Source of the DNA: Escherichia coli
Lineage (GTDB): Bacteria; Pseudomonadota; Gammaproteobacteria; Enterobacterales; Enterobacteriaceae
Assembly: GCF_024700885.2 (NCBI RefSeq)
Contig: NZ_CP117016.1
Direction: 5' to 3' (one strand)
DNA: 64,000 nucleotides
In this document: positions 1 to 40,860 of the stretch, piece by piece
Layout of the letters: each line of letters begins with the position of its first letter
Position numbering within the stretch: position 1 is the first letter of the stretch
Notes under the pieces: model-generated
Database searches by the model: none
What the model was told of the DNA's origin: nothing
Seen by the model: the letters and a program-made list of their open reading frames with translations, nothing else
Program-made: the position numbers and the translations under genes

Positions 1-593
1 CACGTACTGTAAAAATTTATAACCTGCTGGCCGGAACTAATGAGTTTATTGGTGAAGGTGACGCATATATTCCACCTCATACAGGGCTGCCAGCTAATTC
101 TACAGATATCGCCCCACCGGAAATTCCTGCTGGCTTTGTGGCAGTTTTTAACAGTGAAAATGAATCGTGGAATATTGTTGAAGACCATCGTGGTAAAACG
201 GTCTATGACGTGGCATCGGGGGACGCGTTGTTTATTTCTGAGCCCGGACCGCTACCAGAGAATGTCACCTGGTTGTCGCCAGCAGGGGAGTATCAGAAGT
301 GGGACGGCGTATCCTGGGTGAAGGATGAGGAAGCAGAAAAACTGTTTCGGATACGGGAAGCGGAAGAGAAAAAGGCAAGGTTGATCCAGGAAGCAACAGA
401 TAACATCGCAATTCTGCAGGATGCAGTTAATCTTGAAATAGCAACAAACGAGGAAAATTCACAACTGGATTCCTGGAGAAAATACAGAGTATTAGTGAGT
501 AGAATTGACACCAGTACAGCTCCGGATATCGTATGGCCAGAGCTGATGAATCAGGGTTATGTGCGGGAGGACGAGCAGATAACTTCAGACTGA
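1..593 (+). CDS. Phage tail fibre assembly protein (Tfa, P2 gpG-like), 5'-truncated by window edge
   Basis: Frame open from position 3 with no stop; translation ...[35 protein letters not shown]...[21 protein letters not shown] matches Tfa family as I recall it. Confidence 0.8.
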
Positions 594-1120
594 AATTTAG
601 TGATGAATGTTGAATCATCAGGAATATCATGCAATACCAATGCATGAGCACCTATTGTGACATTGTTTCCTATACGCACTTTGCCACCAAGAATGGTGGC
701 ATTACAACCAATGGTCACATTATGTCCTATAACAATATCCATATCATTAAAATCACCACGCAGCCCAATAGTTACCCCTGGTTTTATTGAACAATTTTCA
801 CCGATTGTTACTTTGTGACCGATAACAACACTGTTGAGATAAGAAATATCAAAGCCTTTCCCTATATTTACAGTTAAAGGGACTGTTACATTATATTTAT
901 CAAGAATGAAACGTTCTATTTTCCCCGCAATCTTCCGACAGTATCCGCCTTTATCAAAAAGGTACTTGGCTATGCGCCACCAAAATAAATAACGAACTCT
1001 TCTATGTTTTATTGCGCGAACAATTGCCTTTCGCCAGGAGAAAGGACGCTCGCTACCGATTACTTCATAGTGAATACAATCTTTAAGTTCATTAATATTC
1101 ATATCTCTATTATTCAGCAT
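557..1120 (-). CDS. Left-handed beta-helix (hexapeptide-repeat) O-acetyltransferase, WcaB/CysE-like; prophage cargo
   Basis: 187-aa ORF with tandem hexapeptide repeats ([43 protein letters not shown]); visibly AT-rich; 3' end overlaps tfa 3' end by 37 nt. Confidence 0.7.
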
Positions 1121-1290
1121 AAGATAATCATGTGACCAATTATTGTAATAATTTTAATGGTATGTTTCTACTGGCTATCCAGCGCGCCTGATGTCCAGTA
1201 ACAAATCGTTAACACTAGTGCAATCAAATGGTGAGTGTTAAGACTGGCCACTTATTACCAGGTATGAGGGTATGAGTGGCCAGCATTAAA

Positions 1291-1785
1291 TCAGAACAGC
1301 CCTTTAACTGAACTGGCCGCGCTGTTAAGGGATGATGTCACTTTATCTTTGAAGCCGGACAGCATATCGCTGAACGATGAGGATTGCAGGCGCTCCCGCA
1401 AATCCTCATCACAGCGTTCAAGGGTCAGTGAAAATTCTATCTTTTTCGCCTTACCGTAGCGATCAAACTCGGAACGGGTCGTATTCGTTTCGGTCAGGAC
1501 ATACATGCCGTAAATCTGCCCGACGCCATCAATCAGAGGCCAGGGGCGTCCTGTATACGCCTGCGTGGTCAGCAGCGACAGCGACACTTCGCCACCTGTA
1601 ATTTCAGGATAAAGCACACCAGAAAGAACGATGCGATCATCACCTGCACCGATATACTGCCAGCTTGCTGAACGGTTAACGCGTTCATTTTTCACATGCC
1701 GCCAGCTTTTGTTTTGCTGTAACTGCTGATGCGGCAGCGTGCGCAGCTCAAAAACAAACATGCCGTAGATCATCATCATGGCCAT
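1291..1785 (-). CDS. Phage tail protein gpU
   Basis: 164-aa ORF; FVFELRTLPHQQLQ...VLSGVLYPEITGG...WPLIDG resembles P2 gpU; precise start among the N-terminal Met codons uncertain. Confidence 0.8.
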   Translation of the reverse strand: MAMMMIYGMFVFELRTLPHQQLQQNKSWRHVKNERVNRSASWQYIGAGDDRIVLSGVLYPEITGGEVSLSLLTTQAYTGRPWPLIDGVGQIYGMYVLTETNTTRSEFDRYGKAKKIEFSLTLERCDEDLRERLQSSSFSDMLSGFKDKVTSSLNSAASSVKGLF

Positions 1786-1791
1786 GACTCC

Positions 1792-4635
1792 TCAATCTTT
1801 ATCGTAAAAACTGCCACGCCCGGCACGGGCGCGCCGTTCCATTTCTGCCCTGACCATTTCACCGACCAGTTTCGCCAGTTCGCGGGGATTCTGCGTAACA
1901 ACGTTATGCAGATGAACATGAATTTCACCACCAAATCCGGAGGCAACAGGCTCCCGGTTACGGAAAGTTACAGGAACTGATGCCACTGGAGATCGTATGG
2001 CCTCCGCCACCGGGCGGGAGCTGGCCGCAACAACAGGGACCAGCGCCGGAGGCAGCGGAGCCGGGACCACGGGTGTGATATTAATTGCGGGGGCAGGCTT
2101 ACTGACCTGCGCAATCTTCCGCTCCTGCCACTCCCCACGAACAGCAAGTGCGCGGGGCAGGTTCTTAAAGACAATATCGCCGGGGCCAATGCGTTTTTTC
2201 GTCTCATCAACCAGCTTACCTGTGTTATCAGCAATTTTGCTGAGTCTGCGTAGCGTCCCGGTATTGCTGTCTGTGAGCGGTTTGTTGTCTTTGGGTTTAT
2301 CACCTCCGGTGCCATTGCCATTTTCCACAGGCTTCGGCGGATTGATTTTCGCCAGGTCACCCTGAAGCAAGGCAACCTTGTCCTGAAGAATGGCCGCACG
2401 CTGTGCGTCTTCGATTTTCTTGCGCGCCCTTTCCGCTTCATCCGGAAGGACGCCAAGTTTTTCAAGTATCCACGCCAGCGTATCCAGTAGCATTTTTGCA
2501 GGTGTCAGAACAAGCTGTAACGCACCGCCAAGAACGTTACCGAATATCTCGCCAGCACTGGTACATTTATCCAGCGTTTCCTTGCTGGACTCCATCGGTG
2601 ACAGCAGCGATTTAAACCAGTTAAACACCTGGCTGATCCCGCTTCCGATTGCGTCAAAAACAGGACCAAACCGTTCAAAGGTTTCGCGCAACGGGGTCAG
2701 CCTTTCCATAATCCCGCTGAACACCCCGGCAAAAAATGCCCTGATGGGATCCCAGTATTTCCAGATAAGAACGGCAGCTCCGGCAAGCGCAGCCACGATA
2801 AGACCAACCGGACTGAACAGCGCCCCGATAGCGCCTCCCAGTAAAGAAACGGAACCCGTCACCATTCCCCACAGCGCAGGCAACACCCTGACGACATTCA
2901 TTGACCGGGTAAGAATGTCGAAACCAAGACGCAGGGTGGCCAGCTTCCCGTAAAGCACCCCAATAACCAGCGACAACGAGCCAATCGTTGCAGTCATTGC
3001 CAGCAACGCACCGCCTGCTATCAGTAGTTGGCGCGTCAGTACCGGATGGGCCTGCGCCAGCGAGGTGATTTTTTCAAGCACCCGCGTGAGCCACTGCGTG
3101 ACAGAACGCAGCGGACCGTCAACCAGATCACTGATGCGAATACGAAGACCTTCCCATGCGCTGTCGAGATTTTTCAGGTCCCCATCAAGATTATCGGCCA
3201 TTACTTTTGCGACGCGATCGGCCTCTCCCCTTGCCCCCTGCAATTCTCTGGTCAGTTTTTGCAGCTCTCCTGAACCAGCCGCCGCAACAAGCGTCTGCAA
3301 ACCAACGAACGCCTCTTCTCCGGCGATGTCCTTGAAGAAGGAAACCTGGTCCACCTGTCCGTATTTTTGTGTCGCCTTATAGAGATCAAGCAGCACATCC
3401 TCCATCGGGCGCATTTTGCCTCTGGCGTCAGCAACTGACACCCCCAGCTCTTTCAGTGCATCAGCCGCAGCTTTTGGCGGTGATGCAAGGCGGGACAGAC
3501 TTGCGCGCATGGCCGTACCAGCATCGCTTCCGCGAAGACCATTATTGGCAAGCATCCCGGCCATGGCCGCCGCTTCTTCAAGACTGATACCAAGTTTTGC
3601 GGCAACCGGACCGGTATACTTCATGGTTTCGCCCAGCGCGCGTAAATCAGTATTGGTCCGGGTGAATGTTGCTGTCAGTGTATCGCCAACCCGGTCCATT
3701 TGATCGGCTGTCAGGTTGAACTGTGTGAGGATATTGGAGCCTATATCAGCCGTCTCGCCGAGTTCGACGCCACCTGCCAGCGCCATATTAAGAACACCGG
3801 GCAATGCGGCCTGAATGGCCTGCGGAGTAAAACCAGCCATTGCCAGAAAGCTCTGCCCACTGGCGGCATCACTCGCAGTAAACTGTGTTTCAGAGCCAAG
3901 TTTTAACGCCTGCTCACGCAGCGCCTTAAACTGCGGGCTGTTTTTGTCGATTCGCGTCAGTGCCTGAACGCGGGACATCTCTTTGCCGAACCCGATCGCA
4001 GGCTGCAAAAAACGCCCGGCAGCATAGCCGCCCGCCGCTGCCGCACCAATTGCCAGCGCACCACCTGTTTTCAGTTTTCCCGCTGTTTCCTGCGCGCGCG
4101 AATACCGCTCACGCGCCCGCGTTACACGCGCAAGCGCCTGCCGTTCGCGTTCAAGCTGGTTGTTGTACTGTTCGGTGCGTCTGATGGCCTGCTGGATGGT
4201 GTTATCGCTGCCTGTCAGGGAAATGCCGTGGCGTTTCAGCTCTCCGCCAAGTTCCCGCATTTTCTGAATTTCCCGTGTGCGCGATTCATTCAGGCGTTCA
4301 AGCCGGGTGCTTAACTGCTGCATCAGCTTTTGTTGTTTTTCGCTGAGCACTGTACCCGTGCGTTGTAACTGATTAAGGGCGTTAAGCTGGCGTCGTGCTT
4401 TCACGATGCCCGCATCCGCTTTACTGACAGCGTCACGGGCGCGCTCAAATGAACGCGCCTGACGCTCGAGATTTTTGATCGCCCCCTGCGTTCGCTGGAT
4501 GGAGTCACCAAACTGCCCCATCAGGCGGCGGGCGTTTTCGGCAGGCCGGGTCAGCCTGTCAACGGCGCTGAAAGCGACCCGGATATCAAGAGTCTTCATT
4601 GTCTGCATTCCCGCTGCGAAGTGCCGCCCGCTCAC
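1792..4635 (-). CDS. Phage tail tape measure protein (gpT)
   Basis: 947-aa ORF between E/E' and U, Ala/Gly-rich with coiled-coil-like N-terminal region; start codon uncertain. Confidence 0.85.
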   Translation of the reverse strand: MSGRHFAAGMQTMKTLDIRVAFSAVDRLTRPAENARRLMGQFGDSIQRTQGAIKNLERQARSFERARDAVSKADAGIVKARRQLNALNQLQRTGTVLSEKQQKLMQQLSTRLERLNESRTREIQKMRELGGELKRHGISLTGSDNTIQQAIRRTEQYNNQLERERQALARVTRARERYSRAQETAGKLKTGGALAIGAAAAGGYAAGRFLQPAIGFGKEMSRVQALTRIDKNSPQFKALREQALKLGSETQFTASDAASGQSFLAMAGFTPQAIQAALPGVLNMALAGGVELGETADIGSNILTQFNLTADQMDRVGDTLTATFTRTNTDLRALGETMKYTGPVAAKLGISLEEAAAMAGMLANNGLRGSDAGTAMRASLSRLASPPKAAADALKELGVSVADARGKMRPMEDVLLDLYKATQKYGQVDQVSFFKDIAGEEAFVGLQTLVAAAGSGELQKLTRELQGARGEADRVAKVMADNLDGDLKNLDSAWEGLRIRISDLVDGPLRSVTQWLTRVLEKITSLAQAHPVLTRQLLIAGGALLAMTATIGSLSLVIGVLYGKLATLRLGFDILTRSMNVVRVLPALWGMVTGSVSLLGGAIGALFSPVGLIVAALAGAAVLIWKYWDPIRAFFAGVFSGIMERLTPLRETFERFGPVFDAIGSGISQVFNWFKSLLSPMESSKETLDKCTSAGEIFGNVLGGALQLVLTPAKMLLDTLAWILEKLGVLPDEAERARKKIEDAQRAAILQDKVALLQGDLAKINPPKPVENGNGTGGDKPKDNKPLTDSNTGTLRRLSKIADNTGKLVDETKKRIGPGDIVFKNLPRALAVRGEWQERKIAQVSKPAPAINITPVVPAPLPPALVPVVAASSRPVAEAIRSPVASVPVTFRNREPVASGFGGEIHVHLHNVVTQNPRELAKLVGEMVRAEMERRARAGRGSFYDKD

Positions 4636-4822
4636 GCCAGCTAACCACTTCGCCGGGCGTCATCATGAAGATTTCGGCGGGCGACCAGTTAAAAATGGCG
4701 GCGATATCTGCCACCAGATCTTCGATGTGCTCAAAGCACACCAGCGTGATTACGCTGCCGTCTCCTGCACGCTCTTCGCGCCAGAGTCTGGCTCGCTCAT
4801 AAAATTTACAGCCACAGCGCAC
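4586..4822 (-). other. E' extension frame, reached from gpE by programmed -1 frameshift; overlaps the start of gpT
   Basis: -1 frame ORF overlapping the 3' end of gpE; opens just 3' of a TAA, so no independent start is expected. Confidence 0.6.
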
Positions 4823-5124
4823 AACTGAATAAAATCGCGTGACGACATTTTTTTAATCATCACTTCATCCAGTCGTGGCGAGGTCACGCGAGGCAACAGC
4901 GTGAACATGGTATCCGCTTTCAGATTCAGCACATCAGACAGCGACAGACCACGCAGGGATCCAGCCTGTTCAATAGCCCCGGTGATCTCCACATACGTGA
5001 TTTTTTCGCCACCACGCTCAATTGGTCGGGTCAGTTTTACGCCACGTTCGACAGCCATATCCTCACCTGCCGTCACATCATCCACCACGGTGTTATTCCG
5101 GGTTTCAGTATCGATGTCTTTCAT
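4750..5124 (-). CDS. Tail assembly chaperone gpE (zero-frame product)
   Basis: ORF directly upstream of the tape measure gene with an overlapping -1 frame ORF, typical of E/E'; real start may be an internal Met. Confidence 0.7.
   Translation of the reverse strand: MKDIDTETRNNTVVDDVTAGEDMAVERGVKLTRPIERGGEKITYVEITGAIEQAGSLRGLSLSDVLNLKADTMFTLLPRVTSPRLDEVMIKKMSSRDFIQLCAVAVNFMSEPDSGAKSVQETAA
4801..4807 (-). promoter_or_regulatory. Candidate -1 slippery heptamer A_AAT_TTT for E/E' frameshifting
   Basis: Minus-strand GTA AAT TTT ATG in the E frame; a -1 slip gives AAA TTT TAT GAG, continuing into the E' ORF. Confidence 0.55.
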
Positions 5125-5179
5125 CAGTTTTCTCCTTTTCAGTCAGAGGCGACGCACTGCGTCGCCTGCATATTACTTA

Positions 5180-5692
5180 TCAGCCAAGCCCGAGCGCGGA
5201 ACGGATACGGTCAGGCAAAATGTCCTTGCCGTCCTTCCGGTAGATGTGGTTCAACAGGTCGATTTCCCACAGCGGGCGATCGTTAACGCTCAGCTTGTAG
5301 TAGGTGTTTTTGACAGCGTAAGTGTGTGATGTGGCTTCGCCCTGTTTGGCTTCCCCCATATCAATTTCCGTCACACGTCCGCGCATCTCGATTTCATACA
5401 GATCGCTTTCTGCATCGGTGTAGTATTCACCCGCAAAACGCAGCAGCGTGCCGTCAATCGTGCCGCCATATTTAAGGAACAGCGCACGAACAGCTCCCCC
5501 CATAACAAAACTCGCATCAAGCGCGGAGTCGTCCAGACCGAGATCAATACTTACCGCCCCCATCATGCCACCACCACGATAGCTGTCGGTTTTGCGCGTC
5601 AGTTTGGGCGGCGTGACGGATGTCACTTTACCCACTTCGTTTTCACCATCCACAAACAACGTAAAAAAGCGAAGATGTTTTGGTACAGCCAT
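5180..5692 (-). CDS. Phage tail tube protein (gpFII)
   Basis: 170-aa ORF; its start overlaps the FI stop (ATGA), the usual FI-FII coupling. Confidence 0.85.
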   Translation of the reverse strand: MAVPKHLRFFTLFVDGENEVGKVTSVTPPKLTRKTDSYRGGGMMGAVSIDLGLDDSALDASFVMGGAVRALFLKYGGTIDGTLLRFAGEYYTDAESDLYEIEMRGRVTEIDMGEAKQGEATSHTYAVKNTYYKLSVNDRPLWEIDLLNHIYRKDGKDILPDRIRSALGLG

Positions 5693-6876
5693 CAGGCACC
5701 TCCCAGCACCGCAAATGCGGGACCAAAGAATTCATCAGTAAACGTCTGGTAAAGCTCCATGTCTTCCAGTGGCGGAACGGGCGTATATTTGTAGCGAATA
5801 CGCACACGTCCCTGACGTAAATTCGTGGTGCCGTTATCCACCACGTCATACCAGCACTCCGCGCCAATCAGTTTCCCGGCAGTAACCAGCGAATCCAGTT
5901 TTGCCCTGATGGCACTGATAACATCCTTCACGTTCGCAGGCGTCAGTGGACTGTCGATAGTTTCAAACTGCGCTTCCGCAATTGAATCAGCCAGCACCTG
6001 TGCGGTTCGGGTATACACCTCAAAGATGTAGGCGTTCGTTTCCGGTGTGCGGTTGCCCCAGAAGCGGAACCCATTGCGACGAATAATGGTCGTGATTTCT
6101 TTGTTGTTGAGGCTGTTGGCATCGCTGTCTTCGGCCTGCAACGACCAGAACACATGCCTCGACATCCCCAGCACATTTTTAACCGGAACGTTGGACAGTG
6201 ATTTGTGCCACCCCTGCTCATGGTCAATGTACGCACGAAGGCCGCACGCATAGGCAGGCGCGGGGAACGTTTCGTTTTTGCCACTTTTCGGGTTGTAGGC
6301 GATGAAGTCCGGCCATAAGAGCATCACCTCACGTTCGTTGAATTTCTGGCGGTAGGTAATCGCCTCAGCCATCGTGTTACAGCCGTGACATGAGGCATAC
6401 ACAAACGCGCGCAGTTTACCTGCAATCACGCACAGGGATTTTGTTACAGCCTCCGTGTCCAGCTCCGGCGCGGCCAGAATACGCGGACGGTATCCGATGC
6501 TTTCATCCTGCTCTGCAACAAGCAGCGCATACATCCCCGTATAGCTGCCGTCATCCTCAGAACCACCGATAACCAGTTGATCCTGCGTCTTTCCGTCTTC
6601 TTCTTTGTGTTCAGCCACGCGAACGACAATCACCTTTGTGCTCACCTGGTCTGCGATGGCCTTAAGCGCACGATAAAGCGTCCCCGTTGTCCCGCATTTT
6701 CCCAGCACGTCATTGACGCGGGTCAGCAGTGTGGGCTTGTTCAGCGGGAACAGCTTCGCGTCCGCATCATCCGCCGTTGCCACGATACCGATAACGCTGG
6801 AATCAACATCGTTAATCGCTGTTACCAGGTCGGTATTTTCCGTAACACGGGCACCATGAAAACGAGTTTCACTCAT
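5692..6876 (-). CDS. Phage contractile tail sheath protein (gpFI)
   Basis: 394-aa ORF; motifs LRAFVYASCHGC, QGWHKSLSNV, IRRNGFRFWGNRT, YKYTPVPPLE match P2 FI as I recall it. Confidence 0.9.
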   Translation of the reverse strand: MSETRFHGARVTENTDLVTAINDVDSSVIGIVATADDADAKLFPLNKPTLLTRVNDVLGKCGTTGTLYRALKAIADQVSTKVIVVRVAEHKEEDGKTQDQLVIGGSEDDGSYTGMYALLVAEQDESIGYRPRILAAPELDTEAVTKSLCVIAGKLRAFVYASCHGCNTMAEAITYRQKFNEREVMLLWPDFIAYNPKSGKNETFPAPAYACGLRAYIDHEQGWHKSLSNVPVKNVLGMSRHVFWSLQAEDSDANSLNNKEITTIIRRNGFRFWGNRTPETNAYIFEVYTRTAQVLADSIAEAQFETIDSPLTPANVKDVISAIRAKLDSLVTAGKLIGAECWYDVVDNGTTNLRQGRVRIRYKYTPVPPLEDMELYQTFTDEFFGPAFAVLGGA

Positions 6877-7033
6877 AGCTTCAGCCCCTTGTATCCGTTA
6901 AATGATTCGGCAACAATCATCACCCACCACGCGCGTAATCTCACCCCTGCGCCGTTCTCCCACCACGGCGACAACAAAAAGCAGTAACCCCCTCCGCACG
7001 CACATGCGACCATGCCGCACAGGGAGGGAACAG

Positions 7034-8131
7034 ATGACCGACACCACCATGCAATTGCTCAGTCAGGGCACAGACCCCGTGAAAATGCCGGATTTTGATA
7101 TTCTCGCGGAGGGTAAAACGCTGTCAGGCGTGACAGAGCGCCTGATGAGCCTGTCACTGACCGACAACCGGGGATTTGAGGCGGACCAGCTCACCATCAC
7201 GCTGGATGATGCAGATGGTCAGTTGCAGCTACCGCCACGGGGCGCGCGCCTGACGGTTCTCATTGGCTGGAAAGGAGAACCGCTGACAGAAAAAGGCACT
7301 TACATTGTTGATGAAATCGCTCACGAAGGACCGCCGGACAGGCTGACTGTTTCAGCCAGAAGCGCAGATTTTCGGGATGAATTTAACGTTAAACGTGAGG
7401 TGTCCTGGCATGATGTGACCGTTGAGCGTGTGGTATCCGCCATCGCTCATCGGTACGGTCTGAAACCGCAAATCAGCGAAATGCTGATGGATATCGAAAT
7501 CGACCACGCCGACCAGACCGAAGAAAGCGACATGTCCTTTCTTACGCGCATGGCGGAAATGCTGGGCGCAATCACCACGGTAAAAAGCGGTAATCTGTTA
7601 TTCATTATGCCAGGCGGTGGCGTGAACGCACAGGGCCAGCCGTTGCCATCGTTCGCCATCACGCGCAGCAGTGGCGATCGCCATCAGTTCCGCATTGCTG
7701 ACCGCGAAGCGTATACGGGGGTACGCGCTTACTGGCTTGATCTTAATTACGGGAAAAAGAAAAAAGTCAGCGTGAAACGCCGTAAACCGAAAATGGAGAA
7801 AAGCAGTAGCCGTGAAGGCGACTATATGGAAGGTGCGGAAGGCAACGTGTTTGTGTTACGCAAGACTTATCAGAACGAACAGGCAGCAAGACGCGCTGCG
7901 GCGGCAAAGTGGCAGCAGCTACAACGCGGAGCCGCATCATTCTCCATCACACTGGCACGTGGACGCGCAGAACTCTACCCCGAAATGCATGGCACGGTAA
8001 CAGGATTTAAAAGCGAGATTGATAATCAGGACTGGATTATTGCAAAAGCCGAGCACACCATTGATAACAGCGGTTATACCACGCAGCTTGAACTTGAAAC
8101 AAAAATCCCTGAATGGATTGCGCAGACCTAA
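7034..8131 (+). CDS. Phage late control / tail protein gpD
   Basis: LSLTDNRGFEADQL, SARSADFR, SWHDVT, YMEGAEGNVF match P2 gpD; ATG at 7034 is preceded by AGGGAGGGAA; the ORF track extends upstream to 6902. Confidence 0.85.
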   Translation: MTDTTMQLLSQGTDPVKMPDFDILAEGKTLSGVTERLMSLSLTDNRGFEADQLTITLDDADGQLQLPPRGARLTVLIGWKGEPLTEKGTYIVDEIAHEGPPDRLTVSARSADFRDEFNVKREVSWHDVTVERVVSAIAHRYGLKPQISEMLMDIEIDHADQTEESDMSFLTRMAEMLGAITTVKSGNLLFIMPGGGVNAQGQPLPSFAITRSSGDRHQFRIADREAYTGVRAYWLDLNYGKKKKVSVKRRKPKMEKSSSREGDYMEGAEGNVFVLRKTYQNEQAARRAAAAKWQQLQRGAASFSITLARGRAELYPEMHGTVTGFKSEIDNQDWIIAKAEHTIDNSGYTTQLELETKIPEWIAQT

Positions 8132-8146
8132 ATGGTGGGAAGATAC

Positions 8147-8185
8147 GGCACAGAGCCAACATAATATACCTGTTTGCTCTGTGCC
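8147..8185. repeat. Perfect 10-bp inverted repeat (GGCACAGAGC / GCTCTGTGCC) with 19-nt loop between convergent D and orphan gene
   Basis: Read directly; no adjacent T-run on either side. Confidence 0.5.
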
Positions 8186-8261
8186 CGAAATAGGCATCAT
8201 AAACCTAACGATGAATTGATATGCAAGATTATAAAAAATCCGCTGACATTATTTCTCATCG

Positions 8262-25157: not shown

Positions 25158-25287
25158 TAACCAGGGGCAGTGATCACGCTGCCCCTGGTTCTTTATCTGA
25201 ATTTGCATTCAACTGGCGGATTAATCGTCAATTTAAGAAAAAGAGTTACACCGTCACCACTTCCGCGCACTGTATAAAAATCCTATA

Positions 25288-25303
25288 CTGTACGTATCGA
25301 CAG
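25288..25303. promoter_or_regulatory. LexA box (CTG-N10-CAG) in the ydjM promoter; a second CTGT-containing half-box lies at ~25270-25285
   Basis: CTGTACGTATCGACAG 17 nt upstream of the ydjM ATG; ydjM is a known SOS gene. Confidence 0.7.
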
Positions 25304-25319
25304 TTTAGTGAGTTTTATC

Positions 25320-38266: not shown

Positions 38267-38389
38267 CCACAAAACTATGCAAATTCAATACATTGCATGA
38301 GTCGAATAGGCCTGACAGGCGTAGCACGTCAGATGGTGTAACCTTTGTCATCAACCCGCCTCTTTTTTAATCGCTCCCCGCCTGTTACA

Positions 38390-38405
38390 CTGGATAGATA
38401 ACCAG
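38390..38405. promoter_or_regulatory. LexA box upstream of cho
   Basis: CTGGATAGATAACCAG (CTG-N10-CAG) 16 nt upstream of the cho start; cho is a known SOS gene. Confidence 0.55.
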
Positions 38406-38420
38406 CATTCGGAGTCAACA

Positions 38421-39921
<1,501 letters not shown>

Positions 39922-40531: not shown

Positions 40532-40860
40532 ATTCTATATCCTTCCTTTCAGTTATTTATTACGGCTTTCTTAAGTAGCGTGCCGTGTTGACGAGATTAA
40601 CTTTACTGACTTTAGCGTCAATTAATCAGAGCAACGGTAAAACAATGAAAGTGTAAAAAACACTTTTGCGCCAATTATGGAGAAAAAAAGAAAATTTGAT
40701 GGAGAGTGATGAGAGAATATTACAACACGATGATTTTGCAGAGATTATGAAGAACTATACCGGATGACTGGTGATAAATAAAGCAAATAACCAGGATTAA
40801 TCTGTATTAATTTATAAGAAAGCAACTTAATACCCGCAGAATGATTTCTGCGGGTAAGTA

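Follow-up and report, generated by a model that had tools for sequence, protein, structure and literature searches.

Two stretches of the analysed Escherichia coli DNA, 25268-25305 and 38388-38407, are very probably (about 0.93) the SOS operators of two separate transcription units, ydjM and cho (ydjQ), the former being a tandem, at which LexA would exclude RNA polymerase. Positions refer to the whole stretch of 64,000 nucleotides that was analysed, hereafter the window. The feature is real, functional and already known; it is textbook regulation rather than a discovery, and its value is that of a positive control, i.e. of real operators located to the base from raw sequence. The sequence of the sites, their rank in a position-weight-matrix (PWM) scan, their position and their conservation were observed here, LexA dependence and tandem binding rest on the literature, and the promoter positions, the steric occlusion of the polymerase and the cooperativity of LexA are what we infer.

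The LexA boxes and their genes

The sites and the genes that they precede are the following:

25268-25287, no strand assigned: ydjM LexA box 2, weak and half-site-like, CACTGTATAAAAATCCTATA, 13.27 bits
25286-25305 (core 25288-25303), no strand assigned: ydjM LexA box 1, strong, 20-mer TACTGTACGTATCGACAGTT, 15.56 bits
38388-38407 (core 38390-38405), no strand assigned: cho LexA box, 20-mer CACTGGATAGATAACCAGCA, 19.38 bits
25320-25910, + strand: ydjM coding sequence, ATG start, encoding an inner-membrane putative metal-dependent hydrolase (RefSeq annotation of identical E. coli DNA)
38421-39308, + strand: cho (ydjQ) coding sequence, GTG start (RefSeq annotation of identical E. coli DNA)
25159-25190, + strand: terminator-like hairpin of hxpB, a 14-pair stem followed by a T-rich tail

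A preliminary description of the window had read CTG-N10-CAG boxes at 25288-25303 before ydjM and at 38390-38405 before cho, and both are exact to the base, reading CTGTACGTATCGACAG and CTGGATAGATAACCAG, respectively, on the + strand; the degenerate half-box that it placed near 25270 was also found, as CTGTATAAAAATCCTA starting at 25270. Its assignment of these sites to LexA is borne out by their PWM ranks (1-3), their conservation across genera and the published lexA dependence of the genes. Both genes are indeed in the literature among those with a known SOS box (PMC6590174), and we share the view that the finding is a consistency check and not a novelty, LexA control of ydjM and cho having been published earlier.

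Box 1 of ydjM, with the spacer TACGTATCGA, ends 14 nt before the ATG, and the cho box ends 13 nt before the GTG start. In box 2 the CTG at 25270-25272 forms a perfect left half-site, and CTA stands in place of CAG. The two ydjM boxes overlap by 2 bp, with their centres 18 bp apart.

The identity of both products is clear from family models (PF04307, E=2e-35, and NF008651, E=1e-112, for YdjM; NF007833, 'excinuclease Cho', E=4e-174, for Cho), and the terminator-like hairpin behind hxpB makes ydjM a separate transcription unit. Strain MLI114, which is 100% identical to the window over 1-18,500, served as annotation reference, several strains being identical over both loci; strain elppa4 was dropped for this purpose, as it is not colinear with the window before ~17,718, where it carries a lambdoid prophage.

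The cho start is preceded by a GGAG Shine-Dalgarno sequence at 38411-38414, and both GGAG and GTG are invariant across genera. The annotation of this start varies, in that Salmonella and Enterobacter records take an ATG within the LexA box, 27 nt upstream, and those of E. coli, Citrobacter and others start from the invariant GTG behind the invariant GGAG; in E. coli there is no ATG at the upstream position used in the Salmonella and Enterobacter records (window 38394-38423 compared). At its other end, cho (+) is annotated as convergent with ves (-), with an overlap of 41 nt between the 3' ends (39268-39308).

Statistical weight of the matches

A LexA PWM scan of the whole window, which the preliminary description had itself proposed as the way to refute its reading, returned the three sites as the top three matches and not as matches below threshold. 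Table 4 of PMC3009722 supplied the 17 published LexA boxes of E. coli for the matrix, which excluded cho, was symmetrised and was scanned over all 64 kb; expected counts per window were obtained from iid and order-3 Markov backgrounds. Among ~64,000 positions, the cho box ranks first (19.38 bits; 0.010 expected per window), ydjM box 1 second (15.56 bits; 0.11-0.19 expected) and ydjM box 2 third (13.27 bits; 0.41-0.67 expected), the match of rank 4 scoring 11.29 bits (1.1-1.7 expected). Judged by the score itself, only the cho box is significant, ydjM box 1 being marginal and box 2 not significant. The ydjM boxes gain significance because they adjoin each other, lie just before a start codon and are conserved. 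The probability of at least three matches of at least 13.27 bits in the window is 0.009-0.03, that of a second match of at least 13.27 bits no more than 25 nt from a given site is 3-5e-4, and that of both loci falling inside the 6% of the window that lies no more than 60 nt upstream of a start codon is 0.004.

The heterology index, computed from the 17-site matrix, is 7.9 for the cho box, 9.9 for ydjM box 1 and 10.0 for ydjM box 2, all below the customary cut-off of 15 (PMC11002266) and, for cho and ydjM, in agreement with the published values of 7.5 and 9.0 (PMC11228462). The cho box and ydjM box 1 thus combine the score with the core of a LexA operator; box 2 of ydjM has the score and, with CTA for CAG, lacks the CTG-N10-CAG core.

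The boxes of the preliminary description are real, with the qualification that the readable CTG-N10-CAG pattern has no statistical weight alone. It occurs 31 times in the 64-kb window, compared with 32.1 occurrences expected from the frequencies of the trinucleotides CTG and CAG (0.0224 each). An excess over dinucleotide shuffles (31 versus 12.8, i.e. 2.4-fold) was considered and rejected, being fully accounted for by the usage of CTG and CAG codons; the high frequency of both trinucleotides therefore makes the apparent enrichment void as evidence. These figures are the ones that would favour taking the LexA-like matches as chance copies of a common palindrome-like pattern, devoid of any regulatory role, since the pattern is as frequent as codon-driven trinucleotide frequencies predict and a match as good as ydjM box 1, taken alone, is expected 0.11-0.19 times per window. 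Against it stand the three top PWM ranks, the position and adjacency of the sites, their cross-genus conservation with LexA-like substitutions and the published LexA-dependent expression of the genes (PMC11228462), and the conservation and expression data effectively refute it, leaving it a negligible probability.

Two points of calibration follow for searches of this kind. In coding DNA of E. coli a bare CTG-N10-CAG does not discriminate, chance alone giving ~31 matches per 64 kb, and weak operators like those of ydjM cannot be called by PWM score alone, but need position, adjacency and phylogenetic footprinting.

Other PWM matches, at 40766 (upstream of spy), 63101 (inside sppA), 17743 (between thrS and espL1) and 9584 (upstream of ogr), were rejected as occurring at chance frequency and either being devoid of CAG or lying in coding sequence. 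The first of them, GACTGGTGATAAATAAAGCA at 40766-40785, is the rank-4 match; it scores 11.3 bits, lacks a CAG arm and is situated between spy and astE, ~235 nt upstream of spy. The last is a weak LexA-like 20-mer, AACTTAAAATAGAACCAGCA at 9584-9603, 20 nt upstream of a P2-type ogr gene; its heterology index is 14.4 and its score 5.0 bits, for which a dozen or more chance matches are expected per window. The K-12 gene ogrK is named in reviews among genes with a 'potential SOS box'.

Conservation of the operators

For ydjM, one genome per species was taken and scanned for the YdjM protein, giving 80 Enterobacteriaceae loci with 85-99% protein identity (Escherichia, Citrobacter, Salmonella, Enterobacter, Kosakonia, Raoultella, Leclercia, Atlantibacter and Cedecea among them). 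Box 1 is present at 80/80 of these other loci, usually at a distance of 14 nt from the ATG; none of the 81 sequences has it below 13.6 bits, and the median is 18.8 bits. Its CTG and CAG arms are 100% invariant, substitutions being found only at central positions and in the outer flank, and its conservation follows the information content of the PWM (Spearman 0.45, P=0.048).

For cho, loci with Cho homologues were compared in Salmonella, Citrobacter, Leclercia, Kosakonia, Enterobacter and Yokenella. In 6/6 of these other genera the best LexA match scores 15.3-21.9 bits and occupies the same place, with 12-13 nt between it and the conserved GTG; both of its arms, CTG and CAG, are retained, around ten central bases that vary freely. 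The box is identical in 4/4 divergent E. coli, and its 20-mer CACTGGATAGATAACCAGCA is itself found in a published table of LexA motifs (PMC3009722). Both operators are thus conserved at the orthologous position with changes mainly at positions of low information (ydjM in 80 species; cho in six other genera and four divergent E. coli).

At ydjM, the entire 87 nt from 25233 to the ATG are conserved, boxes included, so that conservation by itself is not specific to LexA; the LexA-like placement of the substitutions is more telling than the conservation of this operator as such. The ydjM region was found in 5,421 E. coli genomes, from which variants were sampled. These differ from the window outside the boxes, as does a K-12-like genome at 25239 and 25266, whose ydjM boxes are unchanged; others carry changes at low-information positions within the boxes.

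The comparison also bears on the nature of box 2. Its left half, ACTGTA, is kept in 76-78/79 aligned operators (96-99%), and its right half is CCTATA in 79/79 and CAG in none. Two overlapping sites at a fixed, conserved spacing are found, as in a tandem operator: the centres are 18 bp apart in 79/81 sequences of the full set and 19 bp apart in the other two. In two species the left half of box 2 is lost, with CCTATA and box 1 retained. A natural operator variant was also met in E. coli NIPH17_0036, one of about 5,421 genomes, in which a 7-bp deletion (AAATCCT) at window 25278-25284 takes away the right half of box 2 and alters the position of its left half-site with respect to box 1.

Box 2 might accordingly be read as promoter sequence, i.e. 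the spacer and -10 region, that chances to resemble a LexA half-site, repression being exerted by box 1 only. Such a reading would suit its score, for which 0.4-0.7 chance matches are expected per 64 kb, the right arm that is CCTATA in every aligned operator and never CAG, as befits a constraint by a TATACT -10 hexamer rather than by LexA, and a conservation that does not track PWM information (Spearman 0.11); in addition, box 2 is absent and box 1 kept in the two species (L016 and L029) and in the E. coli strain with the 7-bp deletion. However, the left half, (T/C)ACTGTAT, matches the consensus half-site perfectly, is nearly always present and stands at a fixed 18-bp spacing, and a match like box 2 would abut box 1 by chance with a probability of only 3-5e-4. 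Independent motif searches, moreover, call box 2 in E. coli, at -52 (PMC4576408), and in Salmonella, where ydjM has its boxes 14 and 32 nt from the ATG, arranged as in the window, and ydjQ has one box (PMC8072944). PMC4951493, citing Fernandez de Henestrosa 2000, mentions the tandem LexA sites at ydjM as experimentally reported, and overlapping strong and weak operators are an established LexA arrangement, as at ColE1 cea (22.1 and 15.1 bits). Taken together, it is quite improbable that box 2 is a mere resemblance. The simplest reading is that one of its arms would be under constraint as part of the promoter, and the other as half a LexA site. The half-box of the preliminary description therefore stands as a conserved weak site, with the qualification that its absent CAG arm coincides with an invariant TATACT, which is probably a -10 hexamer. 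The comparative data thus add small details to known regulation, namely that the 18-bp tandem geometry is fixed across Enterobacteriaceae and that the 'missing' arm of box 2 is invariantly the TATACT hexamer.

Candidate promoters and the conserved block upstream of ydjM

Three further features concern the promoters:

25284-25289, + strand: candidate -10 hexamer TATACT of the putative ydjM promoter, straddling the junction of box 2 and box 1
38383-38391, + strand: candidate extended -10 element TGtTACACT of cho, overlapping the left arm of the cho box
25233-25267, + strand: conserved block upstream of the ydjM boxes, in E. coli TTTAAGAAAAAGAGTTACACCGTCACCACTTCCGC, ...GAGTTACACCGTCACCnCTTCCG, in which most columns reach at least 90% conservation across 80 species

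A simple sigma-70 scan found a + strand -35/-10 pair upstream of neither ydjM nor cho. TATACT is nonetheless invariant in 79/79 aligned ydjM operators and is the sole near-consensus -10 in the conserved block, and upstream of cho CTGyTAyACTG is invariant in seven genera and CTCTTTTTTAA is conserved. In both genes the last four bases of the -10 candidate are the first bases of the strong box (TATACTG at ydjM, TACACTG at cho).

RpoD-holoenzyme genomic SELEX has recovered both spacers, with the hexamers guessed as CTGAAA-17-ATTAAT for ydjM (window 25197-25225) and as TTGTCA-15-TTTAAT for cho (38345-38371). As these guesses lie upstream of the boxes, LexA might act as a roadblock, transcription starting upstream (~25232 for ydjM, ~38378 for cho) and the boxes lying in the transcribed leader (~+35 to +72 and ~+10 to +29, respectively); the beginning of the conserved ydjM block near 25233 and the conservation of CTCTTTTTTAA upstream of cho would agree with such starts. 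SELEX fragments, however, do not map start sites. The hexamers proposed for ydjM fall in a stretch over which the genera do not align; at cho, TTGTCA is missing in the six other genera and TTTAAT is changed to TTTAAC or TTTGTG in four of them, whereas TATACT (ydjM) and TGnTAyACT (cho) are invariant. A conserved leader RNA structure was not found at ydjM either: the block was tried as a structured leader and rejected, 14 pairs being predicted, of which one showed compensatory changes, and the covariation term being -0.2. The Phe leader was the sole match when the window was scanned for tRNAs and against Rfam. Since the SELEX hexamers are not conserved between genera and the two -10 candidates are, action as a roadblock is unlikely, and the exclusion of RNA polymerase from promoters that overlap the boxes is preferred.

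The 35-nt block at 25233-25267 is as conserved as the boxes, and upstream of 25233 the alignment between genera breaks down. It is a candidate for the -35 region and/or for the site of another factor, and in most genera other than E. coli it contains an inverted repeat, GTGAC-N13-GTCAC. At the junction of the ydjM boxes, CCTATACT (25282-25289) is invariant in 79/79 operators; we take it to resemble a -10 of the sigma-S type (CTATACT, with C at -13). It is conceivable, if doubtful, that a second, undescribed factor or an alternative sigma factor also controls ydjM, and that box 2 evolved atop the -10 and spacer. None of the known binding sites explains the 25233-25267 block, and a literature search returned no link of ydjM to RpoS and nothing on this block.

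Published regulation and proposed mechanism

The general SOS mechanism, based on LexA and RecA, is established, and cho (ydjQ) and ydjM are listed among the genes with a known SOS box (PMC6590174). By RNA-seq, lexA dependence is 8.6-fold for ydjM and 5.1-fold for cho; with AZT, ydjM is induced 2.5-fold and cho is not induced (0.77-fold), though it is lexA-dependent (PMC11228462). Ciprofloxacin induces ydjM up to log2 2.6 and cho up to log2 1.6 (PMC11002266).

In undamaged cells, LexA dimers would occupy the cho box and boxes 1 and 2 of ydjM, each operator presumably lying between the core promoter and the ribosome-binding site. As the strong box shares bases with the -10 candidate in both genes, bound LexA would exclude RNA polymerase. 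Upon DNA damage, RecA filaments on single-stranded DNA would stimulate the self-cleavage of LexA, leaving the operators empty and allowing both genes to be transcribed. Box 2 of ydjM, with one good half-site, most likely needs box 1 for its occupancy, and it may extend the coverage by LexA across the promoter spacer. Such cooperative binding of two LexA dimers is suggested by the weak half-site beside a strong site and by the precedent of the colicin operators.

Other features of the window

The window opens inside a P2-like prophage (1-10300), in its tail and late-control end, with tape measure, sheath and tube genes, ogr at 9624-9884 and then a hok/gef gene at 10075-10215, the whole abutting ihfA. 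No more than 278/5,426 E. coli genomes have the greater part of window 1-18,500. Strain elppa4 is identical to the window downstream of ~17,718 and has, upstream of this point, a lambdoid prophage with an integrase adjoining the junction instead of thrS, from which it appears that the thrS-espL1 spacer is a prophage insertion point in some strains. The gene espL1 (type III effector family), at 18213-20111, is annotated as intact; its K-12 counterpart, arpB, is a pseudogene. In published work, arpB is among the candidate SOS genes; near the start of espL1, the PWM scan found no strong LexA match (best nearby 8.4 bits, at 17743).

Comparison with known LexA systems

The cho box and ydjM box 1 share with the gammaproteobacterial LexA box (consensus TACTGTATATATATACAGTA), as known from recA, sulA, umuDC and uvrB, the 16-bp CTG-N10-CAG core within a 20-mer and, likewise, a location at or next to a promoter, which at cho and ydjM is a candidate one. 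With 19.4 and 15.6 bits, respectively, they fall inside the range spanned by the 17 training boxes (13.7-28.3 bits). They are, however, mid-to-weak operators, their published heterology indices (7.5 for cho and 9.0 for ydjM) being compared with 1.8-5 for tisB, umuD and recA (PMC11228462), and in ydjM box 1 the spacer TACGTATCGA resembles (TA)n less than the consensus does.

The tandem at ydjM resembles the operators of colicin genes, in which a strong and a weak box overlap at their terminal positions (PMC4951493). The ColE1 cea operator was checked directly; its two boxes, of 22.1 and 15.1 bits, immediately precede the colicin E1 open reading frame. These overlap by 5 bp, with centres 15 bp apart, as against 2 bp and 18 bp at ydjM; furthermore, the weak box of ColE1 still has two arms (CAC/CAG), whereas that of ydjM, without any CAG arm, is a true half-box. 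Set against ColE1, the weak box of ydjM is also distinct in being promoter-proximal, i.e. upstream, and in coinciding with the putative -10. The lexA promoter itself offers a second parallel, with two closely spaced LexA sites that are conserved across lineages, as at ydjM; there, however, the sites are separate, 1-10 bp apart, and both are full boxes (PMC4951493), whereas the ydjM boxes overlap and one of them is a half-box.
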